Made by a program: the position numbers and the translations under genes. From positions 1-24,988 of IMG/VR virus record IMGVR_UViG_3300037424_001210: 24,988 bases of DNA. One strand, written 5' to 3'. This DNA comes from a virus (Duplodnaviria; Caudoviricetes). The notes under the pieces were generated by a model, which was not told where the DNA came from, did no database searches, and was given only the letters and a program-made list of their open reading frames with translations. Of the stretch, positions 1,066-24,988 are shown one piece after another; position 1 is the stretch's first letter; the number at the start of each line of letters is the position of its first letter.

Positions 1066-1144
<79 letters not shown>

Positions 1145-5238: not shown

Positions 5239-5256
5239 GGCTTGGCCCTGGCTGTT

Positions 5257-5655: not shown

Positions 5656-5667
5656 GGAAGATCTCCT

Positions 5668-6015: not shown

Positions 6016-6018
6016 CGG

Positions 6019-7725: not shown

Positions 7726-7889
7726 GTCTGCGCCTTCTTCTGCTTATAGTAGAGTTCCCACAAATCGACTTCGACGTCTGAAAGGTAGGGTGGCAGCAAG
7801 TCCGGAAGCAGGGCAAAAAGCGGCTGCTTCCACATGTGGGCCAGGCTGAGGGCGTTCTGCACCCGAGGCAACGACCACAGCCACGCTAC
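7722..7889 (-). CDS. gpT-like C-terminal extension of the tail assembly chaperone, reached by -1 frameshift
   Basis: The -1 frame after GGGAAAG reads GKVAWLWSLPRVQNALSLAHMWKQPLFALLPDLLPPYLSDVEVDLWELYYKQKKAQT*; its TGA overlaps the tape measure ATG (ATGA). Confidence 0.8.
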   Translation of the reverse strand, partial: VAWLWSLPRVQNALSLAHMWKQPLFALLPDLLPPYLSDVEVDLWELYYKQKKAQT

Positions 7890-8332: not shown

Positions 8333-8349
8333 TGGATATCCTTAAAAAC

Positions 8350-8376
8350 AGGGCGGCCACGGGGGGCCGCCCCTAC
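8350..8376 (-). repeat. GTAG-family REP-like palindrome
   Basis: Minus strand reads GTAGGGGCGGCCCCCCGTGGCCGCCCT (GTAG tetramer plus hairpin); intergenic. Confidence 0.7.
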
Positions 8377-8386
8377 GGGTTTTAAA

Positions 8387-9397: not shown

Positions 9398-9478
9398 GAT
9401 TTACTCCTTGCTCTCCGTCGTCACGACGGTGAAGAGTTGCGGCCCTGCCTCCCGGCGGTCCTTTTGTTTATGTCGTGG

Positions 9479-9913
9479 TCAAAATTCCCACAATCCTGTT
9501 TCGTATTTGATGACCAGATCGACCGACACCATGCAGACGGTCACCGCCTCGGTCTGTTTGCCTTCGTCGATGCTGTTGATCTCAGTGGTCAGGGCCAGCG
9601 CCGGCGAGCCCCAGGTCTTATTGGCACCGACGCAGATGAGCACGTCGGCGAGGATCGAGGCGGCTTGCTCCATCGTTTTCGCCATGGCGGTGGCGGCGAG
9701 GGTCAGCCGGTGTTCGCGCACCCGGCCGGCGCTGACCGTCACCGGCGAGGTTAGCGGATCGAGCAGCAGCACCGGCAACTCGGCCGGCTGCACGGCATCG
9801 GTGCGCCGCAGGTACACGCGGCCGGCAAGGTTGTTGCTGTAGGTGGCACCGCCGGTGATCGCTTTGAGGGCGGTGTCGACGGCGGCAATTATCAGTTCGC
9901 GCTTGGTGCTCAT
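9479..9913 (-). CDS. Tail terminator / tail completion protein (gpU-like, 144 aa)
   Basis: MSTKRELIIAAV...GRVY...ELPVL pattern; directly upstream of the tube gene. Confidence 0.7.
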   Translation of the reverse strand: MSTKRELIIAAVDTALKAITGGATYSNNLAGRVYLRRTDAVQPAELPVLLLDPLTSPVTVSAGRVREHRLTLAATAMAKTMEQAASILADVLICVGANKTWGSPALALTTEINSIDEGKQTEAVTVCMVSVDLVIKYETGLWEF

Positions 9914-10998
9914 TGCGTTACCTCATACAAGCGTTTCTCTGCCCCGCCGCGCTGGATACGCACACCGCTGGCACCGGCCGCGCCTGGTTCGACCAGCAGC
10001 ATCCGCGAGCCGCGCAGATGCGGTCCGGTGCCGGCGGCGGAAAGGTTGAATGAGCGACTTCCCAGGTAGACGGTTGCTGCCGGCGCGTCCAGATACGCCT
10101 CAATATCGGCTACCAATGCCGTGGCCATTGTCGTATGCCCGGCGAGCGATGGATGTCCGCCATCCGGGCTACGGGCGATTTCCGGCCAAAGGCGGGTATC
10201 GACAAGGAAGGCGGTGACGGCGGCGGTTACGACATCTTTGACCGACTGCACCTTGTCGTTGGCATAACCGACGATTGGGGTGAGGCAAAATATTGTGATG
10301 CCGGGGTGGTCGGTGCGGATCATGCCGAGAAGGGTGGCGTAGTCCGACTCAAAAGCCGTGTCATCCAGGCCAATATCGTTGGCGGCGTGGGCGATCAGCG
10401 CATAGTCAAAAGCCGGGTCGGCGGCGGCAACTCCGGTTTTTTTGTATGGATATTGCGCCAGCGCATCGGGGACAAGGCTTCCCCATGCTTTCAGTATCCC
10501 CGTACCGCCAAAGCAGAGCGTCCAGATTTCCAACCCAAGTGCTGCGCCCGCTTGTTGGTGGTAAACCTGCCGGCCGTCGTGCAGGTTCTGGACGGTGCCA
10601 ACATCCAGCAGGCGGAGACCTTCGCTGATCGAGTCACCGAGCACCAGCATTTTTGGCAGGCCAGTCGGCCACGGCTGCACGTTGCTAGCGGTGATATCGG
10701 TCACGGTGCAACCTGTCCAGCCAGCCCAGCGGTCGTTGGTGTAGTCAACCGACTCCACCCATAGTTCAGCGGTGTGCGAACCAGCGGCCACCGTGACATT
10801 GATTGTCCCTGGCGCCTGCCGGCCGAGCAGCCCCTCGTCTATGAAAAGATTGACGGCCAGACCGCCGGAACAGGTGACAGCGCATGCCGTGCCGGTAAAT
10901 TGCCAACGCAGGCGATAGCCGGTCGTTGGGGTATACAGCCCGCCGTTATCTTCTACCCAGCGCCCGATGCGGGTCAGATCAAGAGAGGCGGGGTTCAT
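9910..10998 (-). CDS. SGNH/GDSL-family esterase, CE2-like architecture (about 362 aa)
   Basis: Blocks VLGDSISEG, FGGTG, AANDI and DGGHPSLAGH; N-terminal beta domain; start MNPASL at 10998 with an ATGA overlap. Confidence 0.85.
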   Translation of the reverse strand: MNPASLDLTRIGRWVEDNGGLYTPTTGYRLRWQFTGTACAVTCSGGLAVNLFIDEGLLGRQAPGTINVTVAAGSHTAELWVESVDYTNDRWAGWTGCTVTDITASNVQPWPTGLPKMLVLGDSISEGLRLLDVGTVQNLHDGRQVYHQQAGAALGLEIWTLCFGGTGILKAWGSLVPDALAQYPYKKTGVAAADPAFDYALIAHAANDIGLDDTAFESDYATLLGMIRTDHPGITIFCLTPIVGYANDKVQSVKDVVTAAVTAFLVDTRLWPEIARSPDGGHPSLAGHTTMATALVADIEAYLDAPAATVYLGSRSFNLSAAGTGPHLRGSRMLLVEPGAAGASGVRIQRGGAEKRLYEVTQ

Positions 10999-12539
10999 GC
11001 TGTCTGACTCCCGTCCCAACTGCTATAGCCGGTCTCAAGTGGGACCGTGAATGCAGTTGCGCCGAAGTTCACCGTTCCGTTAGACGTTCTGTAGAGTGCC
11101 AAGGAAAACCAGATGGCGGCGCTGCCCGACAAAACCGCCGTGTCGGCGTCCAGCCCGTGTGCGGCTGTTTTTACCCGCATCGTGCGGGTGTCTGCATCAA
11201 TTAGCAGCTGCACTTTGGTCCCGGGCGCTACCGCTGGCCAAACTGCCGAATTGACCCCGTTGACCCATTTGAGACCGGTAGACGCTCCGGGTGTTGCGGC
11301 GTTGTGCCAGCCGACGGAGACACCGCCATCCACGGCGTCACCCGGGAAACCGTCGCTGTCGGTCAAGCGGGTTGCGTCGACAAAACCGGCGATGAAGTCG
11401 GCAACATCAGTAGCGGAGTTCAGCACTGCCTCTACCGCCCATTTTCCGGTTGTCTTGCCGGTGGTGCTGAAACAGCGCGTCCATGCAGCCGTGGCAGTGA
11501 CGGCCGTCAAGTTGCCGCCACTGAGAGTTAGCGCAGCGTTCTTTGTTGCCGGATCGAGCGTGATGACCTCAGCGGCGGGGATTGAGACCTCGCAAACAGC
11601 AGAAATCGCCGCGCCGATGTTGCCGGTAATGTCTTTTGCCCGAGCGTGGAGGGTGACGCTTTGTGTCTGGCCGGCGGCTAGGCCGCTGGCGAAACCGGCG
11701 GCTAGCCAGGCGGCGGCGCTTTGCCATGTTGCCCCAGCAAAGGCCGGGTCCATGCTGACCTGATAGGCGCTTGGCGTACCGGATGCCGACAGTGCGGAGA
11801 TGGCTATGTTCGCATCGGCGCTGGTCGCTTCAACAACAAAGCCAGTCATGACCGGTGCGGTTACGTCCGCCGCGACATCCAGAAGAAATCCAAGACCGTC
11901 ATAAAGCTGTGTGGCATCGGCGACGGCGGCGATAGTCGGTTTGATGGTGATCGTTACTACTGATCCCCCCACCCAGCCGACGACGGGCGGCGCCAGCGTC
12001 CAGACGGCATTGGCCCCGGATACGCTCGGTGCGTAGGAGATGCCATCGGTCGCCTCAAGGGTGCCGCTGCCGTTGCCGACACAAGTGACGCCGGAAACGG
12101 CCTCGGTGAACGTCACCTCGATGCTGCCATCGACCGCCAGCGTGGCTGTAGCCGGGGCGGTGATCGCGGCGAAGACGCGCACGTCGTACATCTCGGTTTC
12201 TGAGGCGCCGACCGGGGCGGCCGGGTAGACGATAATATTGCCCGGGATCAGGCGCGACAGATCGGCGTGATATTCGTCATTGGCCAGCAGATCGACCGGG
12301 CGGGACGTGGGCAGGCGAATGTGCCAGTGGTTGGCGCCGCCGGCGGCAGCAACCGTGCAGGGGTTGGCTAGTGCGGCCCCGGTGCTGGTGCGCAGACCGG
12401 CTAGGCGGTGGGCGCCGGCAACGAGGCGCACTTCGAGGGTGTCGGTGCTCTCTAGGGCAATGCCAGCACCGGCCGGACCCTGTGTGTTCTGGCGGATAAT
12501 GCGCGCCGGCAGGCGGTCGCGGATGATACGCTCGGTCAT
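10995..12539 (-). CDS. Tail fibre / receptor-binding-like protein with C-terminal SPRY/B30.2-like domain (514 aa)
   Basis: Ala/Thr/Val-rich Ig-like middle (DVTAP). The C-terminus TLDPATKNAALTLSGGNLTA...TGKTTGKWAVE...LLIDADTRTM...VNFGATAF is typical of phage SPRY domains. Confidence 0.7.
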   Translation of the reverse strand: MTERIIRDRLPARIIRQNTQGPAGAGIALESTDTLEVRLVAGAHRLAGLRTSTGAALANPCTVAAAGGANHWHIRLPTSRPVDLLANDEYHADLSRLIPGNIIVYPAAPVGASETEMYDVRVFAAITAPATATLAVDGSIEVTFTEAVSGVTCVGNGSGTLEATDGISYAPSVSGANAVWTLAPPVVGWVGGSVVTITIKPTIAAVADATQLYDGLGFLLDVAADVTAPVMTGFVVEATSADANIAISALSASGTPSAYQVSMDPAFAGATWQSAAAWLAAGFASGLAAGQTQSVTLHARAKDITGNIGAAISAVCEVSIPAAEVITLDPATKNAALTLSGGNLTAVTATAAWTRCFSTTGKTTGKWAVEAVLNSATDVADFIAGFVDATRLTDSDGFPGDAVDGGVSVGWHNAATPGASTGLKWVNGVNSAVWPAVAPGTKVQLLIDADTRTMRVKTAAHGLDADTAVLSGSAAIWFSLALYRTSNGTVNFGATAFTVPLETGYSSWDGSQTA

Positions 12540-12919
12540 GGCGTTATTACCTTACTGGTGCGCAGTTTTCCGGCGTACCACTGTTCGGGCTCGCCGAGAC
12601 TGTCGGTGACCTTCACGTCGAAATAGGCGACGTATGTACTCCCCTCGATGGCCGTTGCCCCGGCGACAATGACGGTGGCATCGGCGGCGGAGATCTTGCC
12701 GTTAATTACGCCGTTCGGCAGATCGCTGCCGGAAAAGTCGATGTCGGCCAGCTTGGTCGATGTCTCGTCAACCGCGACCCGCACATGCCCGGTGACCGTG
12801 TAGCCGGTAAAATCCATCGGCGTGCTGTCGGGGTTGTCATGCCCATCGTCGATGAGCGGCAACCGGCGGCCGGAGTAGATGACGCGGTTGAGGATGATGG
12901 GGAAATCGGTGTCGTACAT
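12536..12919 (-). CDS. Small BppU-N-like fibre adaptor / virion protein (127 aa)
   Basis: PMDFTGYTVTGHVR...YFDVKVTD...G pattern; ATGA overlap with the fibre gene. Confidence 0.55.
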   Translation of the reverse strand: MYDTDFPIILNRVIYSGRRLPLIDDGHDNPDSTPMDFTGYTVTGHVRVAVDETSTKLADIDFSGSDLPNGVINGKISAADATVIVAGATAIEGSTYVAYFDVKVTDSLGEPEQWYAGKLRTSKVITP

Positions 12920-12931
12920 GGGTTAGCCTCG

Positions 12932-13414
12932 CTATTTCGTCCGCGCTTTGTCCCAGCGCTTTTCAAGGGTGCGCAGCGTCCCCATGCCGAGCATGGCTAA
13001 AACCAGTTCCATGAGGTCGGCCCCGTCGACCGGATACGGCACCAGCGCCTGCATGCCCCAGCACGCCTTGATCCAGAAGATCGCCGCCAGGGTGTATTTC
13101 GGGAGGTAATAGGCCGCCAGAGCCGCCGAGAGCACCCAGCCGATCATCGGCCGCCAGCCGCTGACGAAGATCGACGGGTTTTGCGCTTCGAGTTTGTTGA
13201 CTTCGACCTGCGCCAAAGCGAGATCCTGCTCGCGCTGATCGAGGCGGTCGGCGATTTCGGCCAGTTTGAGTTTGGCGTCTTCGCTCATCACGGTGTCGCC
13301 GGTGATCGCCGCGCGCAGATCCTTCGCCAGACCGCCGAGGGCCGAGCCGGCCGCCTTCACGACCTCGCCGACGGCGGCGCCGCCGGCTTCTCCGATTAAT
13401 TTCGACAGGCTCAT
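12932..13414 (-). CDS. Holin of the 3TM (GTA-type) family (about 160 aa)
   Basis: Start MSLSKLIG at 13414; coiled coil, then VNKLEAQNPSIFVSGWRPMIGW and LAMLGMGTLRTLEK motifs; follows the endolysin. Confidence 0.85.
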   Translation of the reverse strand: MSLSKLIGEAGGAAVGEVVKAAGSALGGLAKDLRAAITGDTVMSEDAKLKLAEIADRLDQREQDLALAQVEVNKLEAQNPSIFVSGWRPMIGWVLSAALAAYYLPKYTLAAIFWIKACWGMQALVPYPVDGADLMELVLAMLGMGTLRTLEKRWDKARTK

Positions 13415-13453
13415 GGGCGCTCTCCGGTAAACATCATCGGCGTTTTGCCTTTC

Positions 13454-13527
13454 GTAGGGGCGACCGGCCGGTCGCCCTGGGGTTGACTCGGATGCCGTTA
13501 CTAGGGCGACCGGCCGGTCGCCCCTAC
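13454..13527. repeat. REPIN-like doublet of GTAG REP sequences
   Basis: GTAGGGGCGACCGGCCGGTCGCCCT (13454-13478) and its exact reverse complement (13503-13527); each copy is itself a hairpin. Confidence 0.85.
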
Positions 13528-13970
13528 GGACGTTCCTCTTTGGCCAGGGCGAGCAGCAGGCCGGTTTTCGGGAACTGGCGACCGGGGCAGGTCTTTTGCG
13601 AGTAGTCGCAGTGATAAACGATGCCGCGCAGCGGGATAGCATATTGCCGCATGAGCGAGGCGCAGAGCGATTCGAGGACGCCGAGCAGTTCGGCGTCGGG
13701 CGGCGCCAGATCGTAGTTGCCGACGAGGCAGACGCCGAGGTGCGTGGCGTTGAGCGCCGGGCAGTGCGCGCCCTGAAACTTGACCGGCCGGCCCTCGATG
13801 ATCTGCACCTTGCCAGCGACGCGCTCGACGAGATAGTGATAGCCGATGTCGTCCCAGCCGTTGGTTTCGATGTGATACTTGCGGATAGCAGAACCGTCGA
13901 CGGTCTTGCCGTCTTTGGTCAGGCTGTGATGGATACAGAGGCCGATCGGGGCAGAGGTAAAGGTTTTCAT
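13524..13970 (-). CDS. Endolysin, N-acetylmuramoyl-L-alanine amidase (Amidase_2 / T7-lysozyme-like)
   Basis: Zn-amidase motifs IHHS, GWDDIGYHY, GAHC, GVCLVGNY and YH...KTCPG. Confidence 0.93.
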   Translation of the reverse strand: MKTFTSAPIGLCIHHSLTKDGKTVDGSAIRKYHIETNGWDDIGYHYLVERVAGKVQIIEGRPVKFQGAHCPALNATHLGVCLVGNYDLAPPDAELLGVLESLCASLMRQYAIPLRGIVYHCDYSQKTCPGRQFPKTGLLLALAKEERP

Positions 13971-13973
13971 CAG

Positions 13974-14177
13974 TCAATCCCCCAGATCGCCATGCCGCCG
14001 TTGCGGAACACCGTGGTTGACTTCGTGAGCACCGAGCAATTTGTTGAATTTTTCTTTAAGCAAATTCAACTCGGAAAAGAGCAGATTCTGGTTTTTGTCG
14101 ACCTTATTTAGCGTGCGCATCGAAAAAAAGGCGACGATGCCCAGCAATATCTCGACGATGTGCGCTCCGGTAATCAT
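13974..14177 (-). CDS. Small membrane protein, possible holin/antiholin (67 aa)
   Basis: N-terminal hydrophobic helix (IVEILLGIVAFF) plus coiled coil; directly upstream of the amidase; GGAGG RBS. Confidence 0.55.
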   Translation of the reverse strand: MITGAHIVEILLGIVAFFSMRTLNKVDKNQNLLFSELNLLKEKFNKLLGAHEVNHGVPQRRHGDLGD

Positions 14178-14498
14178 CTATCCCTCCGTCAGAATCAATA
14201 CAGTCAAACCCTGCCCGTCCGGCTCGGCGCCGGTGATCGTGTAGTCTTTGCCGTCGAGCCCGCGGGTGAGCGCCGTGCCGTGGCTGGCGAGGTCGGTCAC
14301 GTCGGTGCTTTGCACGGTCAGGCGCGGCGCATAACTTTCGATGCCGACGCCCATGACCAGCCGCTCGGTCGGGCCGTCGTAGACGCCGCTGAGCGGCTTG
14401 CCGCCGGGCGTGCCGTCGTCGATGATCCAGGGCTCTGGATCGGCGAACGTGGCGATGACGGCGGTGTTGGCGGCGGCGCTCATCGAAGCGAAACTCAT
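14178..14498 (-). CDS. Head-tail joining protein (gpFII-like, 106 aa)
   Basis: Size, position after the capsid genes, and C-terminal YTITGAEPDGQGLTVLIL motif. Confidence 0.75.
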   Translation of the reverse strand: MSFASMSAAANTAVIATFADPEPWIIDDGTPGGKPLSGVYDGPTERLVMGVGIESYAPRLTVQSTDVTDLASHGTALTRGLDGKDYTITGAEPDGQGLTVLILTEG

Positions 14499-14819
14499 TT
14501 ATTTTTTCTTCCGGCCGAAAAGTCCCCATGTCTTTTCTTCAGGGGGGGGGGGTTGGCTTGCCGCCGCCGCCGTTTGCGCATCGTCTTCCGAAACAGCTGG
14601 CACCGGCGTGATCTGCTGCAGCAGCGCCTTGTTGACCGCGCCGTCGTAGCCGAACGCTTCGCCGCACTTGAACGACACCGACTGGCCGTGGCGGATCTGA
14701 TACAGTCCGCTGCCGAGATCGTCGAGCGACTGCAGTCGCGGTGCGGCCTGCTCTGTGCTCAGGTCGAGGATGCCGGCAAACAGGGTGACCGGCTGATGGA
14801 TGACTTTATAGCGCTGCAT
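14499..14819 (-). CDS. Hypothetical head-associated protein (about 106 aa)
   Basis: Start MQRYKVI at 14819 after a GGAGG RBS; VSFKCGEAFGY motif; directly after the capsid gene; contains a C11 run. Confidence 0.65.
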   Translation of the reverse strand: MQRYKVIHQPVTLFAGILDLSTEQAAPRLQSLDDLGSGLYQIRHGQSVSFKCGEAFGYDGAVNKALLQQITPVPAVSEDDAQTAAAASQPPPPEEKTWGLFGRKKK

Positions 14820-14855
14820 GATGCCTCCCTTGCTGAGAACCGGATTGCTTGCGAA

Positions 14856-14881
14856 GTGACCGGAGCGCGGGCTCCGGTCAC
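14856..14881 (-). terminator. Hairpin after the major capsid gene (terminator or stabiliser)
   Basis: GTGACCGGAGC-GCGG-GCTCCGGTCAC, perfect 11-bp stem; no strong U-tract. Confidence 0.5.
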
Positions 14882-14899
14882 CGGTGCAAACCATCCGGA

Positions 14900-15835
14900 T
14901 CAGGTGAAGGTGGTCAGGCAGGCGTGCTGCCAGTAGCCGAAACCGACGTTGCGGATCGCCTTGATGCCGTAGAGGTGGCGGTCGTTTTTGAACTCTTCCT
15001 CGGAGCCCTCGGCCAGGGCGGTGACTTCGAGCTCAACCTCTTCTTGCAGGATGAACGGCTTGACGTTGCCGTCGGCGCGGAAGGTGGCAAACTTCTCCGT
15101 CCAGGTCAGACGCGGATTGACCACCAACTGGAAATTGAAACCGCCCAGGTTGGTGATGGTGTTTGTGCGGCTGCCCGAGGCATCGACGATGACCGGGTTT
15201 TTCAGGGCGGCGGCGGCGGGGGCCATGAAGGGGGTCGGCACCATGACGGTGAAGTCCATGGCGTTTTCGTTCATCGGCTCGCCCTGGTCATCTTTAAAGC
15301 CGATGATCTGCGAAACCGACTGCAGCACCGCCGTCTCAAACTCGGCAGCGGTCGGCGCCGTGGTCGTGCCGATATTCAAGGTGATATCGTTGTCCTGCGT
15401 GCCGCTGTCGCCTTCGCTGTGGTCGGTGTCGAAGAAATACTGGCCGTCGTAGCAGAGTCCCGCCTCGCCGGCGATGATCAGCGCCGACAGCAGCTTGACC
15501 CAATGGGCGTTGGCGCGGTCCGCCATTTCGTTGACGCGGATCATCACCTGCCCGGTCTTGTCGCGGCGGATCTCGTCGAGCAGCACCTCCAGGGTGGCCT
15601 CGAACTTCTTGTTGGTGATGGTGATGCCGTTTTCGCGCATCGCTTTAGCCAGACGGCCGCCGATCCACTCGCGCATGGCCGGCGAGGAGCCGAGCCAGGC
15701 GTAGGTTTCGCTTGCCTGGTCCGACTTGAACGGCCCCATGGCGATGCGGGGCAGATACTCGTTGCCGACCTTCTGCGCCAAGCGGTCGAAAAAGCTGCCG
15801 ATAATGGCTCGGCTGGAAAGACTGGATGCACCCAT
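14900..15835 (-). CDS. Major capsid protein, Mu gpT-like (311 aa)
   Basis: SETYAWLGSSPAMREWIGGR, ITNKKFEATLEV, CYDGQYFFDTDH, KPFILQ and RNVGFGYWQ motifs are characteristic of the Mu-like gpT family; AAGGAG RBS. Confidence 0.92.
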   Translation of the reverse strand: MGASSLSSRAIIGSFFDRLAQKVGNEYLPRIAMGPFKSDQASETYAWLGSSPAMREWIGGRLAKAMRENGITITNKKFEATLEVLLDEIRRDKTGQVMIRVNEMADRANAHWVKLLSALIIAGEAGLCYDGQYFFDTDHSEGDSGTQDNDITLNIGTTTAPTAAEFETAVLQSVSQIIGFKDDQGEPMNENAMDFTVMVPTPFMAPAAAALKNPVIVDASGSRTNTITNLGGFNFQLVVNPRLTWTEKFATFRADGNVKPFILQEEVELEVTALAEGSEEEFKNDRHLYGIKAIRNVGFGYWQHACLTTFT

Positions 15836-15861
15836 GACGTGTTTCTCCTTTGCAAAAATGG

Positions 15862-15885
15862 GTAGGGGCGCTGCGAACCGCGCCC
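15862..15885 (+). repeat. Degenerate GTAG REP-like palindrome
   Basis: GTAGGGGCGCTGCGAACCGCGCCC, intergenic upstream of the capsid gene. Confidence 0.55.
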
Positions 15886-15898
15886 GGTTTATTGGTTA

Positions 15899-16666
15899 TT
15901 AGGCCTCGGCGGCCCAGATGCCCTTGAGGCCGTTGACGACGTAGCCGTCGGCGTGGCCGGCGGTCAGCGTCACGTAATCGCCGCGGCGGGCGGTGGCCAG
16001 CGTGTTGATCAGGTCCTTGTTGTCGACGCCGCCCAGGTTCGGCCCCATGATCTTGTCGGCGGCGGCCGGATCGGCGCTGATCTGGGCGGTGCCGAAGGGG
16101 GCCATGCAGACCAGGGTGACATCGGACAGGGCGGTGGCGGTGACCGGCAGGGTGACGACGGTGGTCACGGTGCAGAAGATGAGCTTGCCGGTGTCCTGCG
16201 CGTCGAGGGTCAGGGTGGCGGCGGCGAGGGTCTCGCGAACGCGGCCGCCGTACGGGTCGGCGTAGTTGTCGCCGTCGTATTCGACGATGACCACCCCGGA
16301 GCTGACGAAGCGCCGCACGAAACCGATGAAGACGGCGGCGGTCGGAAGAAAGACGAAGGTATTGTCGTCGGTGGCGTAGACCGGCTGGCCAACGTCGGTG
16401 ATCACCGCGCCGGAGACGGCGAGCTGCGCCGTGCCTTTTTTCTTCACCCGCACATTGACGGCGGCGGCGAGGCCGGCGGCGTTGTCGGCTTTGCGCTCGG
16501 CAAAACCGATGAACTTGTCGGCGGCGGTGAGCGGCCGGGCGTGGCCGGTGCCGTCAACGGCACCGACGGCGGCGCCTTCGTAGATGATGTCGGAGGCGAT
16601 CATCGGCACTTCGTTGATGCTGCCGAGCTCTTCGGCCCGAGGGGTATTGACTGCGAGCGTCGTCAT
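15899..16666 (-). CDS. Capsid decoration/cement-type protein with C-terminal extension (255 aa)
   Basis: Between protease and capsid genes; IYEGAAVG, FIGFA, DVGQPVYATDDNTF and FIGFV motifs typical of decoration proteins that accompany gpT-like capsids. Confidence 0.65.
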   Translation of the reverse strand: MTTLAVNTPRAEELGSINEVPMIASDIIYEGAAVGAVDGTGHARPLTAADKFIGFAERKADNAAGLAAAVNVRVKKKGTAQLAVSGAVITDVGQPVYATDDNTFVFLPTAAVFIGFVRRFVSSGVVIVEYDGDNYADPYGGRVRETLAAATLTLDAQDTGKLIFCTVTTVVTLPVTATALSDVTLVCMAPFGTAQISADPAAADKIMGPNLGGVDNKDLINTLATARRGDYVTLTAGHADGYVVNGLKGIWAAEA

Positions 16667-16717
16667 GTTGCTGTTCCTTTCGTCAAAAGAGGGAAGTCCG
16701 GCGCCACGGCCGGAGGT

Positions 16718-17296
16718 TTACTTTTTCAGTACGCGGGCGCGCCCGCTTTCTGCGTGGGTCCGATAGGCGAGGTACGCCCCGAACTTGCCGCCGAACTCGG
16801 CGCGCAGATCGGCGTCTTTGTCCCATTCGGCCTGGGCGCGCTCCTCAATCGGCGCGTTGGGATCGATGCCGGCACCGGGCGTGACATCGGCACCGGGCGT
16901 GACATCGGCGGCGGGGACGACCGGCGGCGCGTCGCCTTCGAGCGCGGCCAGATGCGCCGTGCGCACGCCCTTCTCGGCGGCGATGACGGCGGCGGCGGCC
17001 TGCTCGCCGGTGGTCTGACCGTCGAATTTGAGCGCGGCGATCAGCGCCTCATGGCCGGGGATGAGCTGGGCTTCGACCGCCTGGATGCGGGCGCCTTCGG
17101 CGCTGGCGGCGGCTTTGTGCGGATTTTTCATGCACGAGGCGCATTCACCGCCTTCGCACGACTTGCAGGCGCACGTTCCGCACATCGGCCCGGCGGGCAT
17201 CGCGCCGTCCGCGGCGAGAACATATCCCTCGCGGGCGCCGGCCTGGATCTGCGCGAACAGATCGGGGCTTGCGGACTGGAATTCCTGAATGGTCAT
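16718..17296 (-). CDS. Nested in-frame scaffolding protein (Nu3-like, about 192 aa)
   Basis: Strong internal RBS AAAGGAG 8 nt before ATG 17296 (MTIQEFQSASPDL...AEGARIQAV), analogous to lambda Nu3 inside C. Confidence 0.7.
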   Translation of the reverse strand: MTIQEFQSASPDLFAQIQAGAREGYVLAADGAMPAGPMCGTCACKSCEGGECASCMKNPHKAAASAEGARIQAVEAQLIPGHEALIAALKFDGQTTGEQAAAAVIAAEKGVRTAHLAALEGDAPPVVPAADVTPGADVTPGAGIDPNAPIEERAQAEWDKDADLRAEFGGKFGAYLAYRTHAESGRARVLKK

Positions 17297-18172
17297 AGCT
17301 GTGGCTCCTTTGTTGGCCCTGGCAACACCGGCCGGGCTCTTCTGTTGGTTGATTTTGGCGATCAGGGCTTCGAGGGTGGAAACACCGTCCACCAGCCCGG
17401 CGTCGATGCCTTGGCTCCCGATAAACATGCGGCCGTCGGCGATCCTGGCTTGCACCATGGCCGGGTCCATTCCGCGATTTGCGGCGATATCATTGACCAT
17501 CGCCACATGCACCGCCTGGATCTGGCTTTCGATGTAAGTGCGGCCCTCCGCCGTCAGCGGCGAAAAGCGGCTGTCGATGCGCTTCATCGGTCCGGAGGTG
17601 ATTTCGTTGGTCTTTCTGCCGGCCATTCTTTCGGCTTCGCTGATATCGACGTGGCTGGTCACAACACTGACCGAGCCGACCATCGCCACCTCGCTGCTGA
17701 TGTAGGTGCCGTCAGTGGCTGAAAACAGCCAGACACCGGCGCTGGCAAGCATATTTTCGGTCCAGGTGTACATCGGTTTTTGACCGCGAACACTGCGCAG
17801 GTAGGCGGCTGTCTCGGAAACGCCGGAAACCACACCGCCCGGCGTGCCGACAATAAAGATCAGCCCGCGCACCTGCGGATCGGCCATCGCCTGCCCGACG
17901 TCGCGCTTGAGCAGGTCGAGAGAGATGCCGCCGGAAACCTGTGTAAAAAGATTGGCGCGCTGCATGATCGGGCCGTCGAGATCAAACAGGGCGACGCCAT
18001 CGACAAGCTGATAGCCCTGCGGTTCTTTTTTAAGCGGCCGGCCGAGACGCTCTTCGATGGCGGCAACGTCGATCTTGTCGCCGCGCATGTGCGTTTTGTA
18101 GATCGCCTGTATTTCAGTGAGCATGTCGGGCGTGATTGCCCACATGCCATTGACGATATCGATCAGCTTCAT
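16718..18172 (-). CDS. S49 (SppA/ClpP-like) prohead protease fused to scaffold, lambda gpC-like (about 484 aa)
   Basis: Start MKLIDIVNG at 18172 (ATGA overlap with the portal). Motifs GTPGG, KPMY, LASAGVWLFSA, VGSVSV and GLVDGV. Confidence 0.9.
   Translation of the reverse strand: MKLIDIVNGMWAITPDMLTEIQAIYKTHMRGDKIDVAAIEERLGRPLKKEPQGYQLVDGVALFDLDGPIMQRANLFTQVSGGISLDLLKRDVGQAMADPQVRGLIFIVGTPGGVVSGVSETAAYLRSVRGQKPMYTWTENMLASAGVWLFSATDGTYISSEVAMVGSVSVVTSHVDISEAERMAGRKTNEITSGPMKRIDSRFSPLTAEGRTYIESQIQAVHVAMVNDIAANRGMDPAMVQARIADGRMFIGSQGIDAGLVDGVSTLEALIAKINQQKSPAGVARANKGATAMTIQEFQSASPDLFAQIQAGAREGYVLAADGAMPAGPMCGTCACKSCEGGECASCMKNPHKAAASAEGARIQAVEAQLIPGHEALIAALKFDGQTTGEQAAAAVIAAEKGVRTAHLAALEGDAPPVVPAADVTPGADVTPGAGIDPNAPIEERAQAEWDKDADLRAEFGGKFGAYLAYRTHAESGRARVLKK
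16870..16909. repeat. 18-bp tandem repeat encoding ADVTPG x2
   Basis: GGCACCGGGCGTGACATC at 16871-16888 and 16889-16906. Confidence 0.9.
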
Positions 18173-19752
18173 TCTTCGTCCTCCGGGTCTGGCATTACAG
18201 GTGTGGCCGGCGCGGCTTCTTCCATCTCCAGGCCATCGGCTAGGCGCATGCGCCGCTCTTTGGCGCGCTGGGTGTGCTTGCGCTCCCAATCGCCGCCGGT
18301 GAGGGCGGCGGTTTCTTCGGCCAGGGTCGAGACGCCTTCTTTGATACGCAGACTGGCGGCCTTGATCGCTTTGGTTTCGTCGATCTGCCCCGGCGCATCG
18401 CCGGTCCAGTCGCAGCCGAGATAGGCCATGCGGATGAGCGGGTCGGCAAAGAAGCCGGGGGCGGCCAAGCGGCCGCGGGCGATCGCTTCGGTGATAACTT
18501 CGTCCCAAATCGGCTGGCAGTATTCGTCGGCCAGCCAGCAGCGCGAACGCATGAAAAAGCGCCAGGCTTCGAGCAGGGCGGCGCGGGCGGCCGAGTAGCT
18601 GGCGGTGAAATGCTTGAGTAGGATTTCTTTCGGTAACTCCAAGGCAACGCCGATCTGTTCGGCCATCGCCTGCAAGAACGCCTCGGCGTGGGTGTTCGGT
18701 CGTTTCGGGTCGGCAAATAAAACCTCTTCGTCATGCCGCAGGCCGAGCACGTTGCCGGAACCGAGCTTGATGTCGCGGGTATCCGGCGCAGTCGGTGCAG
18801 TGGTTGTCCCGCCGGGCGGCTGCATGTTGAGCTGCGGGTTGCCGGTGGCGGTCTTGACGAAGACAGTGAAAAGCGAGGCGACGGTGGCGGCGTGGATCTC
18901 ATTTTCGGTGTAGGTAGCAAATTGCTTGAGCAGCTCGATCACCGGCGCCAGATCGGGGACGCCGCGCGTCTGGCCGGGGCGCAATTTGCGGTAGATGTGC
19001 AGGATCTGCCGGCGGCCGGCGCGGTTGTAAACGGGGATCGGCGCGAGCCATTCGCGCTTGCCGCCCGGGCGCAGGTTGCCGGGATGGTGCTTGGCGACGT
19101 GGATCTGTGCCGGGGCGCCATCGGCGTCTTTTTCGATGCCGGCGGTCAGGGTGACGGTGTCGGCGGCGTTGCTCGGGTTGCAGACACGATCGGCCTCGAT
19201 GAAATTCAGGCGCAGGGTGTACGGGTTGCCGGGGCGGGCTTTACGCGGCAGGTTGACGAAGATGTCGCCCGCCGACAGCACCGAGCGGAAGACCAGATCC
19301 TGCGACTGCAGAAAGTTGTGGCCGTGCTCGATGTCGAAATCCTTGCCGCTGGTGGCCAGCTTGAATTCGCGCTCGGCGGCGCGCTCCCAGGCGTCGGCTT
19401 CTTCGGTGCTGAGGCCGGTGAGGATTTCGCGGTCGATGCTGGCGCGCGGCTTGAGGCCGGTGCCGACGACCGAGGTCACCTTGGTGGCGATGGCGCCGGC
19501 GGCGATTGGGGCGTTGCGCTCGAGATCGCGGGAGCGGGCGCGCAGGGTGGCGAGATCGGGGATGATGACGGCATCGGCATCGCCGTTGCCGGCCTGCCAG
19601 GAGGATGTTTGCCGGCGGTCTTTGCGCCCGCCGGTATAGCCGCCGGCGATGGCGAGCATCATGCGAGCGCGATAGCGCTCAGCGGCCAGAGTGGGGTTGA
19701 CGTAGCCGATGAAGCGGTCGAGAAGATTTTGCCGGACCTCGGGGAGCTTCAT
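18169..19752 (-). CDS. Portal protein, lambda gpB family (527 aa)
   Basis: LRARSRDLERN, IEAD, RPGQTRGVPDLAPV, SYSAARAALLE and IDETK motifs. Confidence 0.95.
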   Translation of the reverse strand: MKLPEVRQNLLDRFIGYVNPTLAAERYRARMMLAIAGGYTGGRKDRRQTSSWQAGNGDADAVIIPDLATLRARSRDLERNAPIAAGAIATKVTSVVGTGLKPRASIDREILTGLSTEEADAWERAAEREFKLATSGKDFDIEHGHNFLQSQDLVFRSVLSAGDIFVNLPRKARPGNPYTLRLNFIEADRVCNPSNAADTVTLTAGIEKDADGAPAQIHVAKHHPGNLRPGGKREWLAPIPVYNRAGRRQILHIYRKLRPGQTRGVPDLAPVIELLKQFATYTENEIHAATVASLFTVFVKTATGNPQLNMQPPGGTTTAPTAPDTRDIKLGSGNVLGLRHDEEVLFADPKRPNTHAEAFLQAMAEQIGVALELPKEILLKHFTASYSAARAALLEAWRFFMRSRCWLADEYCQPIWDEVITEAIARGRLAAPGFFADPLIRMAYLGCDWTGDAPGQIDETKAIKAASLRIKEGVSTLAEETAALTGGDWERKHTQRAKERRMRLADGLEMEEAAPATPVMPDPEDEE

Positions 19753-19991
19753 TCGAAAATGACCCCCACGGCTTCAATGCCGGTGCGGCCGCTGGCATTC
19801 GGCGCCAGCCGCTGGCACCAGCCGTTCCAGTAGTCGATATTTTTACGGATGACGTCGGCGTCGGCGAGGGTGAACTCCCGATCACCGGCGCTGGAGCGGT
19901 GCTTGATCGACTGCCCGCCGCCGACCGCTTCGTCGACGCTGATCCAGTAAGCGAGTTTTGCTTCGGCAATAGCGAGGGTGATGCCGGCCAT
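19749..19991 (-). CDS. gpW-like head completion protein (80 aa)
   Basis: MAGITLAIAEAKLAYW...GQS...REFTLAD; lies between terminase and portal; GGAGG RBS; ATGA overlap with the portal. Confidence 0.75.
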   Translation of the reverse strand: MAGITLAIAEAKLAYWISVDEAVGGGQSIKHRSSAGDREFTLADADVIRKNIDYWNGWCQRLAPNASGRTGIEAVGVIFE

Positions 19992-20568: not shown

Positions 20569-20829
20569 CTACCCTCCAGCCCGGTGTTGCAGCGACCGCT
20601 GCACGCAGCGCAGGCGGTATTGTTCGACCGACCAGGCGGTCACGCGCGTCCCGGCGCGGCCAGGCGTGTCGTTGGCTTCTTCGAGTTGGGCCTCTTCGAT
20701 CAACTTAAACACCTTGCGCACCGAGCAGCCGAGGAGCGCCGCCGCCTTGACCGGCGATAGCAGGGTATTGCGCAGGACGAATTCGCCGTGGATGCGCTTG
20801 ATTTCTTCGTGGCTGATCGTCTCGGTCAT
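20569..20829 (-). CDS. Excisionase-like HTH DNA-binding protein (86 aa)
   Basis: Start MTETIS at 20829 (ATGA overlap with terL); LLSPVKAAALLGCSVRKVFKLIEEAQL...TRV is an HTH_17/Xis-type winged helix. Confidence 0.8.
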   Translation of the reverse strand: MTETISHEEIKRIHGEFVLRNTLLSPVKAAALLGCSVRKVFKLIEEAQLEEANDTPGRAGTRVTAWSVEQYRLRCVQRSLQHRAGG

Positions 20830-22730
20830 CGCTGAACTCCTTCGCTGTAAACGCGGCGTGGCGGCGGGGTGTTGGTGGCGGCGTCCGCCGGCCGCTGCCA
20901 GAATTTGACCTGGGCGATCTCGACGAGCGCCAGCTCCATGTAACTGCAATCCCAAAAATGATTCGGGCGCTTTTTCGGGTTGACCCAGAAACCATGCTCG
21001 TCGCGCCCCTCGCTGCACATCTGCCGGGCGAAATCGACATCGATATCTTTGTGCAGGTGCCAGGCGCCGGGGTCGGTCGGGTTGACGAGAAGCTTGGCCG
21101 CCAGGCGGTCTTTGTAGTGCTTGCTGTTGAGGGTGTAGAGCTGCACGGCGCCGGGGAGCGGTTTGTTGGTGCCGGGAAGGCGGTCGAGCTGGGTCATGCG
21201 GTGCGGCGCGGTCATCGACTTCATGCCTTTGAAGAGCAGCATGCCGGGGTTGGCGCAGGCGAAGAGGTACGCCTCGGCGGTGCGCGACAGGTCGGCGTAT
21301 TCTTCGGACTCGCCGCCGCCGGAGTCCATGCCGCGCAGGGTGACGATGTGCTTGTTGCCGGCGACATCTTGGAATTCGGATTCATAGAAAAGCTTGCGCA
21401 GCGACTCCCACGAATCGAGAAAGCCGGTTTTCAGCGTCCAGTTTTCGAGTTCGAGGCCGAAGCCCCAGGCGGTGATCTTGAACCAGAAGCCGCGCTTTTG
21501 CATGTCGGCGACGGCGGTGATGCAGCTGATCGGCACCGACGGCACCAGCCCCTCGGGGCGGTCGTCGCGCAGCAGCAGGATGGCATCCTCTTTGCGCTCG
21601 GCGAAATCCTCTTTGTGATCGATGCACTGATAACCGTGCGCATAATCGCGCCGGGCCGACAAATCGCCGCCCTTGGCGAGCAGATATTTCTCGGCGATCT
21701 CCGCCAGCGGCACCATGGCGATCGGCAGCGCCGGCCAGTGAAAGCCGACCGTAGACGGCCGCGCGACATCGGCGCCCTTGATGCAGAGGTCGCGGCCGTT
21801 TTTGTACGCCATCTGGCGGTCCGATTCGGTCCATTCGACGCCGCAAATATTGCAGGCGTAGAAAACCGGCGCTTCACCGCTTTTGATTTCGTCTGCAGTC
21901 GCCTTGTCCGGGATGATCAGGTGCTCGTCATCCATCAGGATATATTCGCCGCAGTGCGGACATTGCGGGCCCCATGTCCAGATCTGCCGGCAACGCAGCA
22001 TTCCCTCGTAAATAAACCGCCCGGCCGGCGTCGAGCCGAACATGAATTTAGCGCTCTTCGAATCACGGCCGCGCTTGTAAAGCAGTTTGATCGGGTCGGC
22101 TTCCGGGCCGGTGATCGGCGGGAACTTATCGACCTCATTGCCGAAATTGTGCAGGCCAAAAAAGTTTGCCATCGTGCGGGCGCTGTTGGCACTGGCCGGG
22201 AACAGGTAAATGCCGTGGTTGAAGGCAATCAGCGTTTTGCCGGTATCGTCGGCGCGGTCGGAAAGGTATTTCCGCATTTCCTGCGATTCTCGATACATCG
22301 GGATAATTTTTGTTTTTAGGTTTTTCCCGGCGTCTTCTTCGCCGGGCTCAAGCCAGAAAATATTGCCCGGCTTGTGGCGCACGCTCCACAGTTGGCAATT
22401 AAGCATAACGTTGGTTTTTGCCGCCCGCTCAACGCCGCAAATCCACTCTTCACGCAACCACGGCAGGCCGTAGGTGTCCATGGCCTTGACCGTGTGCGGC
22501 ACCAGATCGTTGCGCCACGGCCCAGGCTCGGCATCGACCCCCGTCACCCAGCGATATTTTTCCGCCGCCTCGGAAACTTTGATCATCATCGGCGAGCGCA
22601 GCCGCAGACGCACGGCTTTCGGGATCTCGACTTCGACGACGCGGCCGGTCAGCGCAGCGGACAGGCGCGGCGGCAGCCAGTCTGGGACGGGCAGGCGGCG
22701 GGTGAGGGTTGCGGCGAGGGCGGTTTGCAT
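20826..22730 (-). CDS. terL: Terminase large subunit, lambda GpA family (634 aa)
   Basis: PGPWRND, Walker A-like ERAAKT, Walker B-like NEVDKF, GSTP, CPHCGE, ADMQ, MDSGG, FARQMCSE and RPNHFWDC motifs. Confidence 0.95.
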   Translation of the reverse strand: MQTALAATLTRRLPVPDWLPPRLSAALTGRVVEVEIPKAVRLRLRSPMMIKVSEAAEKYRWVTGVDAEPGPWRNDLVPHTVKAMDTYGLPWLREEWICGVERAAKTNVMLNCQLWSVRHKPGNIFWLEPGEEDAGKNLKTKIIPMYRESQEMRKYLSDRADDTGKTLIAFNHGIYLFPASANSARTMANFFGLHNFGNEVDKFPPITGPEADPIKLLYKRGRDSKSAKFMFGSTPAGRFIYEGMLRCRQIWTWGPQCPHCGEYILMDDEHLIIPDKATADEIKSGEAPVFYACNICGVEWTESDRQMAYKNGRDLCIKGADVARPSTVGFHWPALPIAMVPLAEIAEKYLLAKGGDLSARRDYAHGYQCIDHKEDFAERKEDAILLLRDDRPEGLVPSVPISCITAVADMQKRGFWFKITAWGFGLELENWTLKTGFLDSWESLRKLFYESEFQDVAGNKHIVTLRGMDSGGGESEEYADLSRTAEAYLFACANPGMLLFKGMKSMTAPHRMTQLDRLPGTNKPLPGAVQLYTLNSKHYKDRLAAKLLVNPTDPGAWHLHKDIDVDFARQMCSEGRDEHGFWVNPKKRPNHFWDCSYMELALVEIAQVKFWQRPADAATNTPPPRRVYSEGVQR

Positions 22731-22966
22731 TATTCCTCTTCCACAGCTAACAGTTTTTTACCCGATGTCGTCAGCCAGCCAGTCCGGAGAGAAACACCGC
22801 ACTCGATAAAACCTCGATCCTGTGCGCGCTCCGTGGCTCGATAACACACCTTTTCTGGCTGCCCTGTAATGCGCGCAAGAATTTCATATGGGAAGCTTTC
22901 GCGGTTTTCCCCGTATTCGGCGTAGGCTTCGCAGACCTGCTTGTCAGATATGTCCTTCATCGCCAT
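22730..22966 (-). CDS. Hypothetical phage protein, winged-helix-like (78 aa)
   Basis: TAATG overlap with terL; LARITGQPEKVCYRATERAQDRGFIECGVSLRTGWLT; visibly AT-richer than its neighbours. Confidence 0.7.
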   Translation of the reverse strand: MAMKDISDKQVCEAYAEYGENRESFPYEILARITGQPEKVCYRATERAQDRGFIECGVSLRTGWLTTSGKKLLAVEEE

Positions 22967-22968: not shown

Positions 22969-23523
22969 TCAGCCATCCTCCTCGCTTTCAAACATCACCT
23001 CAACCCGCCCCGCCCCGGCCAGTTCGTTGAACGCCCTGGCGAAGATTTCTGACTCGATTCCTTCGCAGACTTCCGCCGCCCGGCCGGGATCGCCGCCGGC
23101 CAGGTGGAGGATAGCGGCGGCGGAGCGGTGCGCGTGGTGGCGCAGGCTGTCGCGCAGCAGGCCGACGATGCCGGCCATCTGGGCGAAGGCGTCGTCTTTC
23201 AATATCCAGCGCGCATCCTCGGCGCGCTTCTCGCGCTCCAACTTGTCGACCTTCAGCTCGCGCTCGCGCAATTCCAGATTGTCGAGCTTCTGCTGCCGAT
23301 CGGCCAGCCCCATATCCCGGCTCGGCCCGGCGGGGCCGGTCTTGTGCTCGGCTTTGATGTAGGCGAGAAGATCGGCGAGCTTGATTGTCTTGTCCGGCTG
23401 CACCAGGGCGAGTTTCTCGCAATCCTCATAAAATTTCGTCTGCCCGACGGCGATGCTCTCCGCTTTAAGCCAGCGGTGAGCGGCGACGCGGTTTTTGAAA
23501 TTGTCGGGCGCGCGGTTGGTCAT
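22969..23523 (-). CDS. Probable terminase small subunit (about 184 aa)
   Basis: Start MTNRAPDN at 23523, overlapping the intI stop (TGATG). N-terminal DNA-binding-like region, central coiled coil (QQKLDNLELRERELKVDKLERE), Nu1-like layout, upstream of terL. Assignment is by layout and synteny. Confidence 0.65.
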   Translation of the reverse strand: MTNRAPDNFKNRVAAHRWLKAESIAVGQTKFYEDCEKLALVQPDKTIKLADLLAYIKAEHKTGPAGPSRDMGLADRQQKLDNLELRERELKVDKLEREKRAEDARWILKDDAFAQMAGIVGLLRDSLRHHAHRSAAAILHLAGGDPGRAAEVCEGIESEIFARAFNELAGAGRVEVMFESEEDG

Positions 23524-24497
23524 CAGGCCACCAGATCGAGAGGGGAGCGCACCCCGGCGCCGTGCTGGGCGACGTGGGTGTAAATCTGTGTCGTGCGCAC
23601 ATCGGCGTGGCCGAGCAGCTCTTGCACGGTGCGGATATCGGAGCCGGCTTCGATAAGGTGCGTGGCGAACGAATGGCGGAAGGTGTGGCAGCCGGCGGGC
23701 TTGGCGATGCCGGCGCGGCGGATCGCCGCCTTGACCGCTTTTTGCAGCGCGGACGGGTGCAGGTGATGCCGGCGCAGCGCTCCCGGCTGGCCGTCCCGCG
23801 TCCAGGCGGTGGGGGCCGAAGCGGGGAAAACGTATTGCCAGCCCCACTGCAACGGCGCCTGCGGGTATTTGCGCACCAGCGCCTCATCCAGACTGGCGCC
23901 GATGCCGGCCTTGAAGTCGGCGGCATGCAGGCGGCGGATCTTGTCCAGGTGCTGCTGCAGGGCGAATACGAGAGAGGCTGGCAGACAGGTGACGCGGTCT
24001 TTGTCGCCTTTGCCGCAGCGGACGGTGACGGTGCGGCGGTCGAAGTCGAGATCCTTGACGCGCAATTTGAGAACTTCGGAGAGGCGCAGGCCGGCGCCGT
24101 ACAGCAGCGACGCCATCAGCCAGGGATCGTCTTTGAGCTGATCGAGAACGCGGGTGACCTCCTGCCGGGTGAAAACGGCGGGCAGACGCTTGCTGCGCTT
24201 GGCGCGAATGGCGTCGATATCGCCGAGCGGCTGGCGCAACACCTCGCCGTACAGGAAAACGAGCGCATTCATCGCCTGATTCTGCGTGCTGGCGCTGACC
24301 CGCTTCTGCACGGCGAGCCACGAAAGGAAGGCAGTCACCTCGGCGGTGCCGGTCTCAGCGGTGCCGGCCTTGATCCGGTCAACGTGAAAAGCGATGTACC
24401 GGCGCGCCCAGCCGACGTAGGTCTTCTCGGTAGCGAGGCTGTAATGCTTCAGCCGTATTTTCGCGCGTAGCGTATCGATGATTTCTTGATTTTTCAC
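23523..24497 (-). CDS. intI: Integron integrase (IntI-type tyrosine recombinase, about 324 aa)
   Basis: GTG start at 24497 after a GGAGG RBS. N-terminal IRLKHYSLATEKTYVGW and VSASTQNQAMNALVFLY; catalytic LYGAGLR, GKGDKDR, HTFRHSFATHL and LLGHADVRTTQIYTHV; IntI-specific insertion LDEALVRKYPQAPLQWGWQYVFPA...RRHHLH. Confidence 0.96.
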   Translation of the reverse strand: MKNQEIIDTLRAKIRLKHYSLATEKTYVGWARRYIAFHVDRIKAGTAETGTAEVTAFLSWLAVQKRVSASTQNQAMNALVFLYGEVLRQPLGDIDAIRAKRSKRLPAVFTRQEVTRVLDQLKDDPWLMASLLYGAGLRLSEVLKLRVKDLDFDRRTVTVRCGKGDKDRVTCLPASLVFALQQHLDKIRRLHAADFKAGIGASLDEALVRKYPQAPLQWGWQYVFPASAPTAWTRDGQPGALRRHHLHPSALQKAVKAAIRRAGIAKPAGCHTFRHSFATHLIEAGSDIRTVQELLGHADVRTTQIYTHVAQHGAGVRSPLDLVA

Positions 24498-24519
24498 GGT
24501 GTTGCCCTCCTTTCGTGGC

Positions 24520-24559
24520 GTGATATGCCGCCGGGATGGCGGGAGATTATTGGTTCGGC
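24520..24559 (+). other. Putative attI site; crossover G/TTCGGC at 24553/24554
   Basis: GTT core 56 bp upstream of the intI start, pointing away from intI. It has no attC-type left arm, and its downstream bases are complementary to the next attC R''. The left boundary is approximate. Confidence 0.7.
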
Positions 24560-24862
24560 GGCTAGAAATTGATTGAGACTCCAATTCCGTTCCAAAGAGC
24601 GTCCCTCGTCAGGGTAATATTTATCCCTGCAACCCTCACGAACCAATACGGTTTTCCCTGGATGATACCCTTCTGGTTATGGTGATAATGGAAAAACCAT
24701 TTCTTTAAAGGGCCGCGTTTATGGGTCAACCAAGGGGCAATGATCTCAATGTTCAACCTCATACCTACCTCGCTCGAAAAGCGCCGCCGAACCAAAATTT
24801 GAAGCGGAAGGTTCAACGGCAGTGGGTTGTTTCAGCGGCTTCCGCCTCCGCTTAAATTGGTG
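24554..24862 (+). mobile_element. Integron gene cassette 1 (309 bp)
   Basis: Begins TTCGGCGGC and ends at the G of GTTAGAT. Circularisation regenerates GCCGCCGAAC...G/TTCGGCGGC, a perfect 10-bp R''/R' pair. Carries one ORF. Confidence 0.85.
24562..24762 (-). CDS. Cassette-borne hypothetical protein (66 aa)
   Basis: MRLNIEIIAPWLTHKRG...SINF*; GAGGTAGG RBS before ATG 24762; fills the cassette; AT-richer than the phage core. Confidence 0.7.
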   Translation of the reverse strand: MRLNIEIIAPWLTHKRGPLKKWFFHYHHNQKGIIQGKPYWFVRVAGINITLTRDALWNGIGVSINF

Positions 24863-24868
24863 TTAGAT
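24786..24868 (+). other. attC site (83 bp)
   Basis: R'' GCCGAAC, spacer CAAAA, L'' TTT(G)AAGCGG(A)AGG ... CCTCCGCTTAAA L', spacer TTGGT, R' GTTAGAT. The two unpaired bases (G24801 and A24808/9) sit in the left arm with the 3-nt/6-nt spacing of attC-aadA7. Confidence 0.9.
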
Positions 24869-24988
24869 TGCTTGTGGTTCTTGAATAGGTCCGGCCCACT
24901 CGCATTCCATGCGACTAACCGCAAAAAAAGCACGTTTCTCGCTTGGCCACCGATCATCGTACATAGCCAAATAAGTATGCCCAGGCCT
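24863..24988 (-). CDS. 3' end of the cassette 2 ORF (hypothetical protein), truncated by the right edge
   Basis: Open frame ...RPGHTYLAMYDDRWPSEKRAFFAVSRMECEWAGPIQEPQAI*; the TAA stop lies inside the GTTAGAT core. Confidence 0.65.
   Translation of the reverse strand, partial: RPGHTYLAMYDDRWPSEKRAFFAVSRMECEWAGPIQEPQAI

Follow-up and report, generated by a model that had tools for sequence, protein, structure and literature searches.

A phage-borne integron with reversed cassette genes beside the packaging genes of a prophage

Sedentary chromosomal integrons of bacteria, such as that of Vibrio cholerae encoding IntI4 (PDB 2A3V), have an integrase with an additional domain, an intI gene divergent from attI and the cassette array, a crossover at G/TT, and attC sites with R and L boxes and extrahelical bases. 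The element described here has all of these traits and lies in a prophage. It occupies the right end of IMG/VR virus record IMGVR_UViG_3300037424_001210, the entire length of which (24,988 bp, virus-classified) we call the window; the record ends at position 24988, inside the second cassette. Unlike chromosomal integrons, this one is phage-resident, carries its cassette genes in reversed orientation, has 56 bp between intI and the crossover, and has an intI stop codon that overlaps a phage gene. The 203 bp before intI also gave no match to two patterns of LexA-like box, which may not be those of the host. In our judgement it is quite probable that the element is a complete integron owned by the phage, with reversed cassettes that are likely read on one phage transcript and that IntI likely swaps during phage growth, probably trading small accessory genes with other phages.

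Phage integrons are already in print. The initial annotation took integrons to be essentially absent from phages, a view that does not hold after Qi et al. 2023 (PMC9892861), whose survey of 10,705 genomes reported three complete integrons, one lone integrase and 17 integrase-less clusters. Each complete one is either part of a larger integron of the host chromosome (Vibrio p16, Shewanella M16-3) or a class 1 integron on a P1 phage-plasmid, and phage attC sites from that study recombined with IntI1. These integrons and integrase-less clusters (CALINs) resemble the window and its relatives in having IntI, attI and attC in temperate phages and DNA methyltransferase cassettes; the main text of that paper describes no phage-specific IntI clade, fixed pre-terminase place or reversed genes. 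We rejected a captured chromosomal integron of this type for the window because its IntI clade stands apart from host IntIs and its gene orientation is unlike that of host arrays, in a comparison that used the relatives' host class, with the window's own host genome not among them. Class 1 integrons on phage-plasmids (Pfeifer et al. 2022, PMC9600943) are also complete and phage-borne, but they are transposon-borne, with IntI1 and resistance cassettes, whereas the window has no resistance gene in view. Class 1 identity was rejected, as the window IntI is 50.3% identical to class 1 integrases in phage records. Among 50,697 phage records searched with tblastn, nine had an IntI match at E ≤1e-30, all below 60% identity.

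The nearest described case of a gene facing the attI side is the wrong-orientation insertion by top-strand recombination studied by Nivina et al. 2016 (PMC5027507), who state that promoter-facing cassettes were never observed in mobile or chromosomal integrons. That case flips the whole cassette including attC, whereas in the window attC has normal polarity and the gene alone is reversed. For the present layout, with a phage clade, a pre-terminase place and reversed cassettes, we found no paper: a literature search, with most subscription journals outside its coverage, gave nothing on a phage-specific IntI clade, intI-terminase coupling or reversed cassettes, and the available text of Cury 2016 (PMC4889954), Neron 2022 (PMC9024848) and PMC13323075 makes no statement either way on phage integrons. 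A GenBank entry, KX853513 (Virus Rctr41k, L017), is a partial genome, a class excluded by Qi et al.; at 4680-10101 it has an IntI-like gene annotated xerD (44% to the window IntI) and, downstream of it, about six attC-like hairpins of ambiguous polarity between small genes, two of which are annotated methyltransferase-like.

The integron of the window comprises the following features.
23523-24497, minus strand: integron integrase IntI, 324 aa; GTG start common to relatives, ribosome-binding site AAGGAGG.
24519..24559, plus strand: attI; conserved GTGATAT motif, GC-rich dyad, crossover G24553/T24554, 56 bp from the intI start.
24554..24862, plus strand: cassette 1, 309 bp, between the attI crossover and the attC crossover.
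24562..24762, minus strand: cassette 1 gene, 66 aa, reversed; GAGG ribosome-binding site, no homologue found.
24786..24868, plus strand: attC, 83 nt, GCCGAAC ... GTTAGAT; extrahelical bases on the R'' arm (normal polarity).
24863..24988, minus strand: cassette 2, cut by the record end; last 41 codons of the reversed 93-aa gene P0002.

The initial annotation had described a full-length IntI with the integron-specific insertion and intact catalytic residues, and this is borne out. The protein scores 410 bits against the TIGR02249 integron integrase model (cut-off 265), and its best PDB match is IntI4 (2A3V, 255 bits) in a single continuous alignment spanning the integron-specific insertion, whereas Xer-type chains match in two separate stretches or over the C-terminal part alone. 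All six catalytic positions are present (R138, K163, H271, R274, H297 and Y306), and these residues are invariant across 15 aligned IntIs. With dN/dS of 0.14-0.22 in all three pairs tested, sequence comparison indicates that IntI is under purifying selection. Relatives were gathered with IntI: viral contigs gave 15 loci at first and 66 in a second round, a search of about one third of the genome collection gave 582 confirmed matches, of which the best 80 were taken, and so were the best 80 of 501 metagenome matches. In the resulting tree the window protein falls in a well-supported clade of 12 rows (SH-aLRT 100; FastTree agrees) apart from 24 other Desulfuromonadia IntIs. This is a quick tree, unrooted in effect, from which 17 of 108 rows were left out and in which two outgroup rows are too long for rooting; because it lacks a root, we claim no direction of transfer.

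Upstream of intI, an alignment of 14 regions of the clade shows a similarity that runs as far as an invariant GTT (24553-24555 in the window) and is lost beyond it, which places the crossover at G24553/T24554 and turns the previously noted attI-like core into a defined site. The distance from the intI start to the crossover is 55-56 bp in 11 of 12 clade members and 82 in the remaining one. A hairpin role for the attI dyad was not supported: it pairs in 87% of cells with one compensatory pair and does not beat shuffles (85/500). The attC site, called canonical before, scored 36.5 bits (E 7e-7, single strand) with a covariance model trained on 38 sites from other loci, chosen by our own heuristic and with the window site left out; the second-best match in the window reached 9.5 bits. 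By the heuristic itself it scores 14.8, with no match at or above 14 in 1.25 Mb of shuffled window. Its folding energy by itself is not above shuffles (z -1.3 and -0.85), and Rfam gave nothing at the integron. Cassette 1 is complete and bounded as the initial annotation had it, and the start of a second cassette is seen beyond it. The GC content of cassette 1 is 0.485, that of the prophage 0.62. Judged by its integrase, attI and attC, the element is a real integron, and it departs from the textbook in one respect, that its cassette genes do not point away from attI.

This reversal was overlooked in the initial annotation. Both cassette genes of the window face opposite to those of bacterial cassettes, and the stop codon TAA of the cassette 2 gene is the TTA of the crossover. 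An open reading frame (ORF) of at least 50 aa that stops at the crossover on the reversed strand is found at 18 of 21 attC sites of the clade versus 1 of 12 in host chromosomal loci, while ORFs stopping at R'' on the usual strand occur at 3 of 23 clade sites versus 6 of 14 host-locus sites. In a wider set the reversed stops number 47/111 at viral and 6/76 at genome sites (Fisher p 1e-7), and the usual-strand stops 24/119 and 30/86; distant viral arrays may be mixed in gene orientation. Family matches agree in direction with the clade counts: in 11 arrays (seven of the clade and four outside it, one overlapping L005 ORF having been swapped by hand), 16 of 47 reversed-strand ORFs and none of 42 usual-strand ORFs match a PHROG. 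Since attC keeps its normal polarity and the reversal is confined to the gene, these are not wrong-way insertions; the cassettes were built reversed. A cruder test by the longest ORF was dropped as too noisy and replaced by the stop-at-crossover test and the family matches; under the longest-ORF test L016 and L018, compared here as integrons of the Qi type, gave eight usual, one reversed and three unclear.

The cargo found among the reversed ORFs of relatives includes DNA methyltransferases, Lar-like restriction alleviation, Gam-like end protection, PAPS reductase and radical SAM proteins; with Pfam, an RNA polymerase alpha C-terminal domain (alpha-CTD) and, weakly, MazG were matched as well. 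The alpha-CTD protein (PF03118, E 4e-14) has 125 aa and is encoded by the first cassette of L006 (3975-4352); it is possibly a transcription decoy. For the window itself, the cassette 1 protein is present in the protein collection on this contig alone, with Atlas scores of at most 0.85. The cassette 2 gene is matched 100% by P0002 (93 aa), which was called on another contig of 16,820 bp and reaches Atlas scores of 0.90-0.91 to unnamed clusters, a lead only. Neither a 29-nt cassette 2 pattern nor the P0002 protein found a match among viral contigs.

The remainder of the window holds late genes of the prophage and the host flank, with the following features.
3..872, minus strand: host hydrogenase small subunit; left flank, outside the prophage; TIGR00391 365 bits against a cut-off of 179.5.
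1066..1142, plus strand: tRNA-Pro(CGG), by ARAGORN and Rfam; prophage tail end, probable integration site.
1238..19991, minus strand: prophage late genes (tail, lysis, protease, head-tail adaptor), by PHROG and NCBIfam matches.
14900-15835, minus strand: major head protein, by PHROG/NCBIfam matches.
18169-19752, minus strand: portal, by PHROG/NCBIfam matches.
20826..22730, minus strand: terminase large subunit (terL), lambda-type, phrog_15, E 9e-81.
22730..22966, minus strand: 78-aa ORF between the terS-like gene and terL, without family match.
22969..23523, minus strand: terS-like gene, 184 aa, whose ATG overlaps the intI stop; a positional call.

Along transcription the order is cassette 2, cassette 1, attI, intI, terS-like gene, 78-aa ORF, terL, portal, head, tail and tRNA, and the phage late genes are all on the minus strand. 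The integron is contiguous with the terminase and head genes, as stated initially: the intI stop overlaps the terS-like ATG in the sequence TGATG, and in 12 of 14 members it overlaps or abuts an ATG. The terS-like gene has no match in PHROG, NCBIfam or Pfam, and it owes its label to where it lies and to a 70-aa stretch with 30% identity to a protein that itself matches terS weakly; it is 50% identical to the gene in the equivalent place of a prophage in genome G061. The junction recurs in relatives. PHROG matches, sought in the three longest same-strand ORFs of the 2.6 kb downstream of intI with long ORFs shortened to 450 aa, place a terminase gene there in 22 of 63 loci, and tblastn adds three more. 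In L042 and L101 the integron has terS on one side and terL on the other. Upstream of intI, at least one attC scoring 13 or more is found in 39 of 60 viral loci after removal of near-duplicates. No viral locus was found with peptide patterns of the window TerL.

Residence inside a prophage, claimed initially for the window, is supported through these relatives, above all by G061. On its 1.36-Mb contig C3 a 38.7-kb prophage is flanked by two copies of a 48-bp tRNA-like repeat (178509, 217139), with host genes on either side. Its early genes (phage integrase, HTH repressor-like, primase-like, C5 methylase) are followed by five attC, attI and intI, and its identity to the window is 69% for intI, 50% for the terS-like gene, 54% for terL, 69% for portal and 71% for the major head protein. 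In G001 (contig C61), primases, CII, a CI-like repressor and a second tyrosine recombinase follow beyond the array, then host genes. It could be argued that the integron is a host chromosomal one that has a truncated prophage as its neighbour or was carried into it, as in the Vibrio and Shewanella cases: such captures exist (PMC9892861), the record ends inside cassette 2 with the right boundary outside view, and 187 of 401 genomes of the likely host class, Desulfuromonadia, match IntI. Only five of these matches exceed 540 bits, the next being 430, and all five are in phage gene contexts; indeed clade IntIs are in phage context wherever flanks are readable (the contigs of L152 and L154 are too short to judge). 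G002 and G061 carry, in addition, a second, distant IntI elsewhere. With the clade distinct from host IntIs, the intI stop overlapping the terS-like start, the integron internal in the bounded prophages G061 and G001, and the cassettes reversed unlike host arrays, we regard a host chromosomal integron, whether adjoining or captured, as very improbable.

Three of the five top-scoring genomes are named Desulfuromonadales, Trichloromonas and Desulfuromonas, for which reason the host of the window is likely a Desulfuromonadia bacterium. The hydrogenase gene and tRNA-Pro of the flank (hydA/tRNA-Pro) have partial matches, at 70-91% identity, in 20 of the order's 201 genomes, which are too distant to name the host. 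In two relatives no IntI or attC was found within about 1.5 kb of that tRNA.

The coupling of intI to the packaging genes would also suit a system in which IntI and attI mainly serve the phage genome, by entry into host attC arrays or resolution of multimers, with the cassettes as by-products. In its favour is also one attC of L002 (468-525), which shares 91% identity across 64 nt with an attC of a host chromosome (L271:7520-7577), in an array whose genes face the usual direction. G061 and G001 have, however, a separate phage integrase, G061 is inserted in a tRNA-like repeat and not in an attC, and the arrays hold many distinct genes with phage-type functions. We give this explanation very little credence and prefer an integron that serves to exchange cassettes.

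Cassette exchange, put forward initially as acquisition or shuffling of small accessory genes, gains support from natural differences among relatives, as read from their sequences. L001 and L003 are one phage by IntI and TerL (98% identical each), and L003 reads attI-A-B-C where L001 reads attI-C, a difference of exactly two cassettes joined at G/TT. Cassette A of L003, its first, equals an inner cassette of L011 (338 bp, 96% identical), whose terminase belongs to another family than that of L003. The platform itself has moved between phages too, judging from L001 and L004, in which IntI is 98% identical and TerL 23%, and from the Mu-like L009, which bears an IntI of the clade. The integron could be phage-owned and now static in the window, its genes expressed and IntI no longer moving them. 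L011, which keeps its array beside a deleted intI, is compatible with such a state, as is the single sequencing run that covers the site (X1), in which no alternative junction is seen, although contigs drop rare variants. Against a static element stand the open frame of intI with its six catalytic positions and low dN/dS, and the fact that all 14 aligned loci differ beyond GTT. Moreover, GCCGAAC, the R'' of cassette 1, complements the attI junction GTTCGGC exactly, which is what a recent insertion would leave. We therefore hold a static integron to be unlikely, and an active one to be the better account.

How such an element would work can be outlined from its layout. The cassettes, intI and the terminase genes all run in the same direction and are likely read from a single phage transcript, as strand, spacing and the stop/start overlap suggest. 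The 55-56 bp gap before intI is filled by the ribosome-binding site and attI, with no promoter-like site between intI and the crossover (sigma-70 consensus only), and for this reason intI probably has no promoter of its own and would be made alongside the packaging genes after induction. Such joint expression would replace the LexA control of many bacterial integrons, in which a LexA box before intI is common, though not universal (PMC8946536). The attC hairpins likely fold on single-stranded DNA during phage replication, which would also serve the resolving of the recombination intermediate; the bacterial mechanisms behind both steps have been described (PMC5027507, PMC8946536). Cassettes would then be cut out by IntI through attC x attC recombination and inserted at attI, in the way established for the bacterial enzyme. 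It is the reversal of the cassette genes relative to bacterial cassettes that changes the view of how the element is expressed: the cassettes could do without a Pc promoter, and the one most recently inserted would come last on the array transcript, adjoining intI. The cargo likely serves counter-defence and DNA modification.

Several observations weigh against this interpretation. The sites in the orientation counts are not independent, and both the attC finder and the ORF test are home-made; the longest-ORF test divides viral cassettes into 58 reversed, 39 usual and 52 unclear, and the usual-strand ORFs at viral sites of the wider set, counted above, point the same way. Neither cassette gene of the window could be given a function by family or homologue searches. 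The far end of the window prophage, where the second att copy and the early genes would be expected, lies beyond the record. The link to the terminase is not universal, as 11 of 63 loci have replication genes after intI instead, no terminase is visible in L020, and in L009, which is Mu-like (transposition protein, Gam) and has a clade IntI and array, intI is followed by another gene. L001 and L003 come from metagenome assembly, which could itself have produced the difference of two cassettes, and a single sampling campaign may lie behind several of the close contigs. In L011 some ten attC sites form an array next to an intI (9987-10519) that is out of frame and has an internal deletion, with most of the N-terminal half gone. 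Finally, the contig of run X1 that covers the site (to 24891), possibly the source of this DNA, shows one junction and no joint or loose end at the array.

Other observations concern the arrangement of relatives and the rest of the window. A scan for the attI motif returned nine viral contigs, four of them known clade members and five without IntI similarity; among the latter an attC match lies nearby only in L276, where it follows the attI-like motif (2509-2872) in 4.6 kb of available sequence. In L020 (10379-11999), L021 (1328-1416) and L149 (2017-2896), attC sites of the same polarity lie downstream of intI, before the terminase region. Three related prophages, L005 (2503-3216), L020 (2206-2817) and L266 (12990-13730), have a tail-completion (gpZ-like) gene among the early genes, upstream of the primases. 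In the lysis region of the window, 13440-13541 forms a long near-perfect inverted repeat, and an Rfam mir-341 match there, far below the gathering score, was rejected as a chance hairpin match. Between the lysis and tail genes (9910-12539) are two genes, one with weak acetylesterase/deacetylase similarity.

Phage accessory regions between the replication and packaging genes are highly mosaic, and the arrival of small genes with clean borders is usually credited to homologous or illegitimate recombination. A dedicated site-specific system would be a direct route for the gain of small genes, on a compact platform of intI plus 56 bp. The window helps its study in that the platform is intact, the clade is defined, one relative is bounded on both sides, and before/after pairs occur naturally. 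The reversed cassettes also bear on how cassettes are made. More tentatively, with the odds in our view slightly against it, phage integrons may form a network, a mirror-image pool of cassettes that phage operons can read and hosts leave silent, traded among unrelated phages by a packaging-linked IntI. Bacterial integrons have been described as banks of anti-phage genes (bioRxiv 2024.07.02.601686 and 2024.07.02.601719). If the network is real, it would be the counter-defence counterpart of these anti-phage cassette banks, and with methyltransferases and Lar- or Gam-like genes in the phage version, phage and host alike would be using the same machine.

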